Shown here piece after piece: positions 12,301-29,188 of a stretch of DNA of 43,763 nt. A program made the position numbers and the translations under genes. The notes beneath the pieces were generated by a model. It did not search any database. It was not told where the DNA came from and worked only from the letters and a program-made list of their open reading frames with translations. Source of the DNA: an uncultured Candidatus Saccharibacteria bacterium (GTDB lineage Bacteria; Patescibacteriota; Saccharimonadia; Saccharimonadales; JAGQNJ01); contig CAYRRR010000005.1 in NCBI GenBank assembly GCA_964426755.1, forward strand, positions 1-43,763, given 5' to 3'. Each line of letters opens with the position of its first letter. The stretch's first letter is position 1.

Positions 12301-12350
12301 ATAAGGTAAGTTTACTACAGATTATCAAATGTACGAGCCGCTCGGTCCTC

Positions 12351-12504
12351 ACGGTCACCTTCGGCGACCCCGTCGCAACTTCTTTCAAAACAAGTTTTGA
12401 AGAGTTGACTCCCTTGCGGATTGCCACCGGCAATCCTCACCCCAGCCGTACCCGTATGTCCAACTGCGCCACACCCCGTCGTCAGAATCGACGGTCGCCT
12501 TCGG
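12351..12504 (-). repeat. degenerate 5'-half copy of tRNA-Pro within a hairpin-rich element bounded by 14-nt direct repeats
   Basis: 12460-12478 and 12440-12451 are exact copies of tRNA-Pro segments. ACGGTCACCTTCGG (12351) and ACGGTCGCCTTCGG (12491) lie 140 bp apart. Confidence 0.75.
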
Positions 12505-18310: not shown

Positions 18311-18499
18311 ACACACCTCGGCAAAATGCCACCTAACACATTGTTAGTATACATAGGCTAGTATTAAAATGCTAGTACTTTGTTAACTTTCTTTTCCACA
18401 GCTTTTTGCTTTGTAAAAGGACTCCCTCCTGTTTCCGGACAGAAACCACTCAATGAGAAGATTCATTGAGCTGAAAGAAGGACGGCTGGAAGGCCAAAC

Positions 18500-18529
18500 T
18501 AAAAAACACGCTACTCGATCGCGTGTTTT
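18500..18529 (-). terminator. intrinsic terminator downstream of tRNA-Val and its repeat
   Basis: AAAACACGC-N9-GCGTGTTTTTT on the minus strand. Confidence 0.7.
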
Positions 18530-18556
18530 AAGGGTTGGTCGGACTCACCTCCGACG

Positions 18557-18574
18557 TGTTGGGCGGTACAGGAT
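18557..18574 (-). repeat. displaced copy of the tRNA-Val 3' end (att-like)
   Basis: GGGCGGTACAGGAT at 18561-18574 is identical to 18720-18733; the ACCA end reads AACA. Confidence 0.8.
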
Positions 18575-18715
18575 ATCGCCCATTGGGCTCTTCCCTGCGG
18601 TGCTCGAAATAACTCTGAACAAGCTCAATTACTTCTGCGCTCCTCGTTCACCGAACCTTTGCCTCGAATCAATACGATCGACCAGTTTCTATGCAGCCGA
18701 TGGCTCCGCAGAAAC

Positions 18716-18792
18716 TGGTGGGCGGTACAGGATTCGAACCTGTCACCTCAACAACGTCAATGTTGCGCTCTAGCCAAATGAGCTAACCGCCC
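18716..18792 (-). tRNA. tRNA-Val(GAC)
   Basis: 77-nt cloverleaf; anticodon arm CAACA-TTGACGT-TGTTG; CCA encoded. Confidence 0.95.
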
Positions 18793-18834
18793 TTTTTACT
18801 TGATAATTTTACCAAAAACAGGGGTAAATATCAA

Positions 18835-28213: not shown

Positions 28214-28261
28214 TTATGTGATTGTGAGTGAAGTCATTTGGTAATGTCGTACAATATAGAT

Positions 28262-29188
28262 ATGTTGTTTTCAAAAGCAAAAACTGATTTTCTAGAATAT
28301 CTTGAAATTGAGCAAAATCGCTCACAGCGAACAATCCACAATTATGACCATTACCTTACCCGATTAGAAGATTACGGCGGAGACATTCAAGTTGAAAATA
28401 TTGATCAAGAATTTATTCGCAAGTGGCGTTTGTGGCTAAACAGGCTCGGCACCAACACCAGCGAAGAACTGCAAAAAAACACTCTTAATTATCATCTTAT
28501 TGCACTCAGAAGTTTTTTAAAGTGGTGCGCTAAACGCGACATTAAAGCTTTACCTGCAGACAAAATAGAGTTAGCAAAAGTTGTTCGTAAGCAAGTTACG
28601 TTTTTAAATAACGATGAGTTGAATAATTTATTTGCTCAACCAGACACCCACACGTTACAGGGGTTACGAGACCGCGCAATTCTAGAATTACTTTTTTCAA
28701 GTGGTCTGCGCGTTTCTGAACTCGTTAGCCTTAACAAAGAACACGTTAATTTAAAACGCCAAGAATTTATGGTGCGCGGCAAAGGCCAAAAAGACCGTCC
28801 AATATTTATTAGTAATGCTGCTGCGGACTGGCTGAGCAAATATATAGAAACGCGAAACGATACTATCCCTGCCCTCTTTATACGTCATGGCAATAAAAAA
28901 GAAAGTCCTGATAGGACAGGCAATTACCAGCGACTTACCGCACGAAGCGTACAGCGCATGGTTAGTCGTTATGCGTTGCTGGCGGGTATAACCAAACATG
29001 TTTCACCGCACACACTGCGCCACAGCTTTGCCACCGACCTGCTTATGAACGGCGCTGATCTTAGAAGCGTACAAGCCTTGCTTGGGCACAGCAATATTGC
29101 CACCACCCAAATCTATACACACGTAACTGACCCCCACCTAAAACAGGTCCATCAAAAATATCACAGCAAAGACAAAGCATCCCGCTGA
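28262..29188 (+). CDS. XerC/XerD-type tyrosine recombinase
   Basis: SAM-like N-terminal domain; RDRAILELLFSSGLRVSEL; V.GKG.K.R; HTLRHSFAT; LLGHSNIATTQIYTHV. Start at 28262 follows TACAAT by 6 nt. Confidence 0.92.
   Translation: MLFSKAKTDFLEYLEIEQNRSQRTIHNYDHYLTRLEDYGGDIQVENIDQEFIRKWRLWLNRLGTNTSEELQKNTLNYHLIALRSFLKWCAKRDIKALPADKIELAKVVRKQVTFLNNDELNNLFAQPDTHTLQGLRDRAILELLFSSGLRVSELVSLNKEHVNLKRQEFMVRGKGQKDRPIFISNAAADWLSKYIETRNDTIPALFIRHGNKKESPDRTGNYQRLTARSVQRMVSRYALLAGITKHVSPHTLRHSFATDLLMNGADLRSVQALLGHSNIATTQIYTHVTDPHLKQVHQKYHSKDKASR

Follow-up and report, generated by a model that had tools for sequence, protein, structure and literature searches.

Here we show that the window, by which we mean the whole 43,763-nt stretch of Saccharibacteria DNA under analysis, carries on its minus strand at 18715-18557 a unit of class A, from a family of units without genes that sit at tRNA 3' ends in the Saccharimonadales (Saccharibacteria/TM7). 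The units share one anatomy, their helices covary and are biased towards one strand, and a sibling of the window's unit is polymorphic for insertion or deletion within its genus. The reading that best accounts for these data, to which we assign a probability of roughly 0.55, is an insertion unit without genes of its own that depends on activities supplied in trans and targets the T-loop and 3' end of tRNA genes; its conserved core would work as a folded single strand. The family is apparently undescribed: no account of these tRNA-linked units was found in the literature searched or in Rfam.

The source assembly comprises 0.80 Mb in 63 contigs, is 92.7% complete and has a GC content of 45%. Read on the minus strand, tRNA-Val ends in ...ATCCTGTACCGCCCACCA, with its last base at 18716 (laid out before the spacer, this terminus reads ...GGTTCGAATCCTGTACCGCCCACCA), and is followed by a spacer of 141 nt (18715-18575) and then by a copy of its own 3' end (Table 1). 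The copy starts at T-loop position 59 and spans the last two T-loop bases through the CCA; it agrees with its parent over 14 consecutive bases and departs from it in the change of C74 to A. A 17/18 match inside the 283 nt that follow the tRNA has a chance expectation of ~1.3e-7. The first-pass annotation of this DNA had described an intact tRNA, 141 nt too small to encode anything and a T-loop-initiated 3' copy with an altered ACCA, and each of these points was confirmed, the spacer holding no gene. Its further claim of a perfect 10-bp stem that takes in the ACCA is equally borne out by the sequence: ACCAGTTTCT (18681-18690) and AGAAACTGGT (18710-18719) form a perfect inverted repeat which includes the complement of the tRNA-Val ACCA. 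The motifs GGTTCG and GATTCGA, also reported there, are both present in the spacer. When folded as RNA, a 167-nt stretch of the locus reaches -58 kcal/mol (z = -2.7), a value equalled by 1 of 200 shuffles.

Table 1. Features of the tRNA-Val locus, in the direction of the minus strand
Feature	Position	Strand	Basis
Promoter-like site TTGATA-17-TAAAAT with TG, directly 5' of tRNA-Val (putative)	18806-18834	minus	consensus scan
tRNA-Val(GAC), intact, CCA encoded	18716-18792	minus	ARAGORN; Rfam RF00005, 64.3 bits
Hairpin S: 10-bp outer stem ACCAGTTTCT/AGAAACTGGT including the tRNA ACCA, plus inner stem; no T-run	18681-18719	minus	sequence, fold
Decayed antisense copy of tRNA-Val nt 52-76, TGGTCGATCGTATTGATTCGAGGC, 16/25 match	18661-18684	minus	alignment to reverse complement of the tRNA 3' third
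Class-A core: GGTTCG, conserved GGTGAACGAGGAGCGCAG, helix P3, long hairpin P4 with GCTTGT cap, conserved CGAGCACCGCAGGGAAGAG	18588-18670	minus	covariance model R1, 83.9 bits, E = 5.6e-19; covariation
Short hairpin P5 (GCCCAATGGGC) and GAT linker closing the core	18575-18588	minus	fold
Copy of tRNA-Val nt 59-76, ATCCTGTACCGCCCAACA, CCA changed to ACA	18557-18574	minus	17/18 identical
Flank block F, outside the unit proper: hairpin, T-run terminator (18526-18501), conserved stretch, third hairpin (18471-18448)	18440-18556	minus	homology to a relative's tRNA-Phe 3' flank

Five pieces recur in the units, namely hairpin S, an antisense copy of tRNA nt 52-76, the hexamer GGTTCG, a core of ~80 nt and a sense copy of nt 59-76, so that the full order reads tRNA (...52-76), S, the reverse complement of 76-52, a loop, 52-57, core, 59-76. 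Hairpin S begins at or within the tRNA CCA across the family; S-equivalent hairpins occur in 31/31 units with a mean stem of 17.9 bp, at least two nucleotides of the CCA are paired in 27/31, and a T-run follows in the manner of an intrinsic terminator in 19/31. In some units the antisense arm can be recognised from end to end (21/25 in L021, 20/25 in L042); its mean identity to the expected sequence is ~67%, even where the 18-nt copy is perfect. The CCA that had been noticed as sequestered at tRNA-Val forms the inner end of an inverted repeat made by the tRNA end and its antisense copy. A loop of ~3 nt separates the antisense arm from GGTTCG, which corresponds to sense T-arm nt 52-57, as shown by two loci (L064 and L059) where a pseudo-tRNA with a complete 5' part has the core placed directly in its T-loop. 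Most cores terminate in GCGAT, and the position of P5 is occupied by hairpins of different sequence in other units, among them that of G020, a genome of another genus in the source family.

The two loci just named mirror the usual layout, the pseudo-tRNA with its core (Asp in L064, 331-411; Glu-like in L059, 331-414) lying upstream of the real tRNA. This arrangement resembles a unit that precedes tRNA-Pro in the window (12330-12504), a region in which the class-A core model gave no match even at E <= 1.

That model (R1, a covariance model of the 84-nt class-A core) defines class A as an R1 core 3' of a tRNA followed by a copy of nt 59-76; the window's unit shows 83.9 bits, a 141-nt spacer and a 17/18 copy. 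This is the single R1 match in the source genome and it ranks among the ten best of 51 cores. Across the order the distribution is patchy, with matches in 33/151 sampled genomes and 32/121 genera (1-5 copies each), and in 3/24 genomes of the source family. Nearly all copies of the core lie directly 3' of a tRNA, and 16 kinds of tRNA are represented. Among the 30 units with an identified parent tRNA, the spacer measures 141-169 nt (median 149, the window's being the shortest), and the distal copy of nt 59-76, which tracks the local tRNA variant, is intact (18/18) in 15 and matches at 17/18 or better in 19. The source genome itself extends beyond class A: when its tRNA 3' duplications were listed genome-wide, as had been proposed from the sequence, 7 of 31 tRNAs (~1/4) had their own 3' end repeated 121-166 nt downstream, and the cores of these seven units fall into at least three classes with one common order of parts. 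The early suggestion of a family of ~140-nt non-coding elements targeted to tRNAs is thus supported, for units of about 140-170 nt, in this genome, in 33/151 genomes of the order and at 16 kinds of tRNA, with no enzyme gene of their own.

Beyond the sampled genomes, an exact pattern of the core found 16 loci among 185,579 species genomes, most of them ~60 nt past a tRNA; 15 of the titles name Saccharibacteria or Saccharimonadales and one names Parcubacteria. Two of ten matches to the core pattern in metagenomes were discarded as chance hits in GC-rich DNA. In IMG/VR viral contigs the exact pattern gave no match and a looser one gave four chance matches that fail the model. A search of 18480-18730 against Rfam, at the gathering threshold and at E <= 10, returned nothing credible beyond noise. 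One class-A unit (L023 1399-1479, in G041) is an orphan, ending in a tRNA-like 18-mer, ATCCTCGCCCCAAGACCA, and lying more than 8 kb from any tRNA; the 17-mer has no second copy in G041, where no parent tRNA was found.

Comparison of relatives reveals filled and empty sites. G020 has the same tRNA-Val with a homologous spacer of 144 nt and a perfect 18-nt copy, and its hairpins differ in sequence from those of the window with pairing preserved. In the congener G001 and in G014, G017 and G023, tRNA-Val stands without an insert; around the "empty" site of G001 the flank has diverged so far that bases cannot be compared exactly. A large island was found at tRNA-Val in none of these five genomes. 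The first-pass annotation would have given way to a mere deletion scar had other tRNAs lacked such spacers and relatives carried a large island here; instead, the relatives have either an empty site or a 144-nt unit, and other tRNAs do have spacers. A base-exact comparison is available in the genus g42, where G055 carries tRNA-Thr(TGT), a 150-nt class-A unit, the 18-nt copy, tac and tRNA-Tyr, and where tRNA-Thr and tRNA-Tyr are separated by ttgc in G115, by a single t in G152 and by 86 unrelated nucleotides in G172. Taking the unit and one 18-mer away from the filled site gives the empty site, the mark left either by an insertion that creates an 18-bp repeat or by a precise deletion between the repeats. 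Loss by slippage between 18-nt repeats would yield empty sites identical to those expected from gain.

Units also occur in series. Behind a tRNA-Asn (L018 1-3100) they alternate with cargo cassettes, in the order unit, 18-mer, two-gene cargo, 18-mer, unit, 18-mer, a 315-aa open reading frame, partial 18-mer and third unit, with four perfect 18-mers at the boundaries and no recombinase gene. The two-gene cargo encodes a metallophosphoesterase-like protein (GDxH/GNHD motifs) and a 117-aa protein. Behind a tRNA-Asp, in another genome (L050, G045:C5, ~280-600 in tRNA orientation), a class-A unit is followed by a core of another class within a sense partial copy of tRNA-Asp, which is interrupted again before a final GGTCGGGCCCGCC; these are stacked or nested insertions.

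As a course of events we propose that DNA was inserted into the T-loop of tRNA-Val(GAC) between nt 58 and 59. A new 3' end may have been brought in with the DNA, or the target may have been duplicated over 18 bp; either way the tRNA would be left whole and a second copy of nt 59-76 would land behind the core. An 18-bp duplication copied from the target, as in casposons, would account for the constant match between the copy and the local tRNA variant. The inserting enzyme would be encoded outside the unit and act in trans, and the unit would do its work as a folded single strand, either as a transcript made together with the tRNA or as the sense DNA strand at the time of insertion.

The case for a folded single strand comes from the helices. 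The ~80-nt core has three covarying helices, and in a set of 51 cores the 13 pairs of P3 and P4 are formed in 92.7% of cases, against 66.8% in shuffles (none of 500 as high); 12 of the 13 pairs show changes on both sides, and sliding the partner by 1-3 columns as a control leaves 35-50% paired. On the tRNA-sense strand, G.U pairs in the core outnumber A.C pairs 30 to 6 (p = 7e-5). Hairpin S has the same leaning, with 41 G.U pairs in the sense fold vs 13 in the antisense fold, and the sense fold is the stabler one in 22 units, the reverse holding in 8 (p = 2.5e-4). Covariation together with the G.U bias, in core and S alike, argues that the fold matters as a single tRNA-sense strand, be it RNA or single-stranded DNA, and helices maintained on that strand suggest that the unit works in this form. 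Where a gene runs in the direction of replication, its sense strand serves as the template for lagging-strand synthesis. A K-turn in the internal loop between P3 and P4 was considered and rejected, the G after the loop forming a covarying Watson-Crick pair.

The antisense arm behaves differently from the core. Its changes are biased from GC to AT (C>T 35, G>A 28, A>G 9, T>C 6) and only the part complementary to the T-stem remains cognate. A decayed arm beside a perfect 18-nt copy implies that the arm is older, or freer to change, than the copy, and that either each insertion renews the copy or the copy is under constraint. We also tried arm and copy as a selected "minihelix", as an outer helix and as a long guide, and set these ideas aside: cognate duplex energies are overall no better than non-cognate ones, and the arm has changed by GC-to-AT decay and not in a wobble-preserving way.

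Whether the unit is transcribed can be judged from its terminators. The window's S has no T-run, which suggests that the core is transcribed together with tRNA-Val; the first T-run hairpin lies at 18526-18501 and a second terminator-like site at 18471-18448, and co-transcription probably extends up to the former, a predicted terminator. Units are also found between closely spaced tRNAs, as Thr-unit-Tyr in three families and as Ser-unit-Ser in two genomes, and S is without a T-run in all five; this fits read-through to the downstream tRNA, with the unit lying within the precursor. In most other units, S would halt transcription ahead of the core.

These observations bear directly on the main rival to the insertion unit, in which the core is chiefly a small RNA gene, cut from the tRNA precursor by tRNA-processing enzymes and serving the cell, for example in tRNA metabolism, its spread being secondary (duplication, gene conversion, or natural transformation with homologous recombination). 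We consider this possible, if on balance unlikely. Covarying helices with a sense-strand G.U bias are what such a gene would show, P4 is capped by CUUG-type loops in several unit classes, and the units inside tRNA operons, like that of the window, have an S without T-run. Furthermore, the window's core is in the top ten of 51 by score although its genome lacks mobility enzymes, and the distal copy stays perfect in units whose S and P4 have diverged past alignment. Against it stand a terminator-like S ahead of the core in 19/31 units, presence in only 22% of the order's genomes and 3/24 in the family, congeners that do without the unit at no visible cost, and decay of the CCA of the copy in several units, the window's included.

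One conserved core at 16 different tRNAs is hard to reconcile with ordinary sequence-specific integrases, which counts against the insertion reading. In a more specific form of that reading, the unit might be a programmable, nucleic-acid-directed insertion device: the sense and antisense tRNA arms displayed on the core, folded as sense single-stranded DNA or as RNA, would mimic, or guide to, the double-stranded tRNA target, insertion and the 18-bp duplication would be the work of an enzyme from the host or a helper, and a change of arms would retarget the unit to any tRNA. We regard this as doubtful; if tRNA-derived arms do set targeting, it would be a new principle of site choice. The integron attC site and the attP(+) hairpin of CTX phage are recombination sites that act as folded single-stranded DNA; like the units they conserve structure over sequence and are strand-specific, with arrays resembling cassettes (as in L018), and the inverted target copies of the units could likewise fold into a mimic of a double-stranded target. 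The units differ in that they come with no IntI gene, their target is not dif, and an attC stem is much simpler than their core. No attC family matched in Rfam at E <= 10, and an Xer-type gene was found but no integron integrase.

Among established tRNA-associated elements, tyrosine-integrase islands and prophages are close to the units. They too insert at the tRNA 3' end, leave the tRNA intact, produce a direct repeat starting in the T-loop and form tandem arrays, and the window displays the corresponding marks of a tRNA-targeting element, a 17/18 copy (18574-18557) and a restored tRNA. The attR interpretation given earlier holds to the extent of this direct repeat; its other half, the integrase, was not found, and a resemblance is what is left of it. 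Neither in nor beside the unit is there an integrase gene, the 141-nt spacer being geneless and the nearest PF00589 gene lying 9.4 kb away. In addition, the units differ from such islands in their uniform length of 141-169 nt, their covarying and strand-biased core, their antisense target copy and the at least 16 tRNAs used by one core family. CIMEs share with the units the lack of recombination genes, and would be expected to have an autonomous relative; no core-bearing autonomous relative was seen near 22 loci or in viral contigs, and more than 30 units are uniform in size and in the order of their parts.

Casposons, whose integrase is a solo Cas1, and CRISPR spacer integration offer a further comparison: some casposons use tRNA 3' ends as their target, of which 14-15 bp become duplicated. 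Unlike casposons, the units have no terminal inverted repeats detectable by eye and their source genome has no Cas1 gene. MITEs and other non-autonomous transposons are, like the units, small, non-coding and repeated, with the enzyme acting in trans. The units stand apart in their strict specificity for the tRNA T-loop, in their 18-bp repeat and in the absence of visible terminal inverted repeats: inspection of the aligned units by eye revealed no inverted repeat between their ends (the start of S vs ...GCGAT).

The same hosts also carry cassettes of large serine recombinases at tRNA 3' ends, and the unit might be explained as a deletion scar, the attL and attR ends of a once large island, borne by an integrase or a serine recombinase, that has lost its interior. 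An insert flanked by direct repeats of a tRNA 3' end is what such a loss would leave. Large serine recombinases are common, occurring in 101/151 sampled genomes of the order at 1-9 copies per ~1-Mb genome, and they sit at tRNA 3' ends between long inverted repeats, of which hairpin S could be a remnant. In the cassette that we examined (L073), the recombinase lies between 138-nt inverted repeats of 99% identity (689-826 / 2380-2517) that start 8 nt inside tRNA-Ser(TGA). Such cassettes thus resemble the units in host, in their position at the tRNA 3' end and in having an inverted copy of the attachment region beside the tRNA end. They differ from the units in carrying a recombinase between inverted repeats of 100-150 bp that begin ~8 nt inside the tRNA and in having no 18-nt copy, while the units are geneless, duplicate nt 59-76 and have a 39-nt hairpin as S. 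The L073 cassette, the one examined, leaves no 18-nt direct copy, a footprint unlike that of class-A units. Independent deletions would not give more than 30 units at 16 kinds of tRNA with a uniform length of 141-169 nt and one internal order, and no relative has a large island at the tRNA-Val site. A tie between class A and the serine recombinases can also be dismissed: they are present in 19/33 class-A genomes vs 82/118 genomes without class A, with no association. Taken together, a deletion scar appears very unlikely.

A search of the source assembly for an enzyme that could move the unit returned little. There was no match for resolvase-type or large serine recombinase domains (PF00239, PF07508), nor for reverse transcriptase, the IS110 DEDD transposase, TnpB, Cas1 or the Y1 HUH transposase. 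Because retroviral primer-binding sites likewise measure 18 nt, tRNA-primed reverse transcription was considered, and it was rejected for want of a reverse transcriptase gene in the source genome. PF00589 matched twice, in the Xer-type gene 9.4 kb from the unit and on a 5.4-kb contig. The latter (C36 of the source genome, L047, 1-5384) carries a tyrosine recombinase scoring 69 bits, and its Arg/Ala-rich reading frames suggest a high GC content, so that the contig looks foreign to a genome of 45% GC; perhaps it comes from an actinobacterial host or is a mis-binned element. No protein family recurs beside 22 unit loci, where only syntenic housekeeping genes are seen. With no dedicated mobility enzyme in the assembly, its copies of the unit may be old and immobile.

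The 316-aa protein encoded at 28238-29188 is the only credible site-specific recombinase of the assembly. This Xer-like gene (28262) had been put forward as the only candidate mobiliser in view; the units would then be moved as IMEX elements are, which exploit XerCD. By its score it is an ordinary XerC/XerD/XerA-type enzyme and looks like the single housekeeping Xer of the genome. Known Xer-exploiting elements integrate at dif and not at tRNA genes, the insertion here is at a tRNA gene, the targets vary in sequence among 16 tRNAs, and nothing connects a housekeeping-type Xer to sites in so many; we hold mobilisation by the host Xer to be extremely improbable.

Hardly any probability attaches to hairpin S as a cis regulator that controls 3' maturation of tRNA-Val by sequestering the CCA, an idea voiced earlier and unsupported in that form: the CCA does lie in a perfect 10-bp stem, but its pairing is family-wide (27/31 units with at least two nucleotides) and is better explained by the position of S next to the antisense copy of the tRNA terminus, most S hairpins resemble simple terminators, congeners manage without the unit, and the core, antisense arm and 18-nt copy would be left unexplained.

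The units may be mobile elements without a recognised engine, or a new kind of structured RNA linked to tRNA genes, and both could be true. Either way they bear on the gain and reshuffling of DNA at tRNA genes in ultra-small symbiotic bacteria and on the processing of their tRNA operons, and thousands of Saccharibacteria genomes carry annotation in which such units are unmarked.

Past the copy, the ~115 nt of block F consist of a hairpin GTCGGA..TCCGAC, a conserved TTCCAG..TCC stretch and a covarying third hairpin. Homologues are found directly after tRNA-Phe in G009 and after a "...CTCCACCA" remnant in the congener G001, with the junction exactly at the CCA in the window, G009 and G001; the block is missing from the tRNA-Val locus of G001. 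It could be a movable flank cassette or a plus-strand small RNA gene. The tRNA-Val(GAC) gene of the window (18716-18792) shares its upstream flank with G001 and differs from that congener's gene (L014 547-624) in the acceptor stem, the D-loop and the whole T-stem, and it is identical to the tRNA-Val(GAC) of G020, G014, G017 and G023, which belong to other genera.
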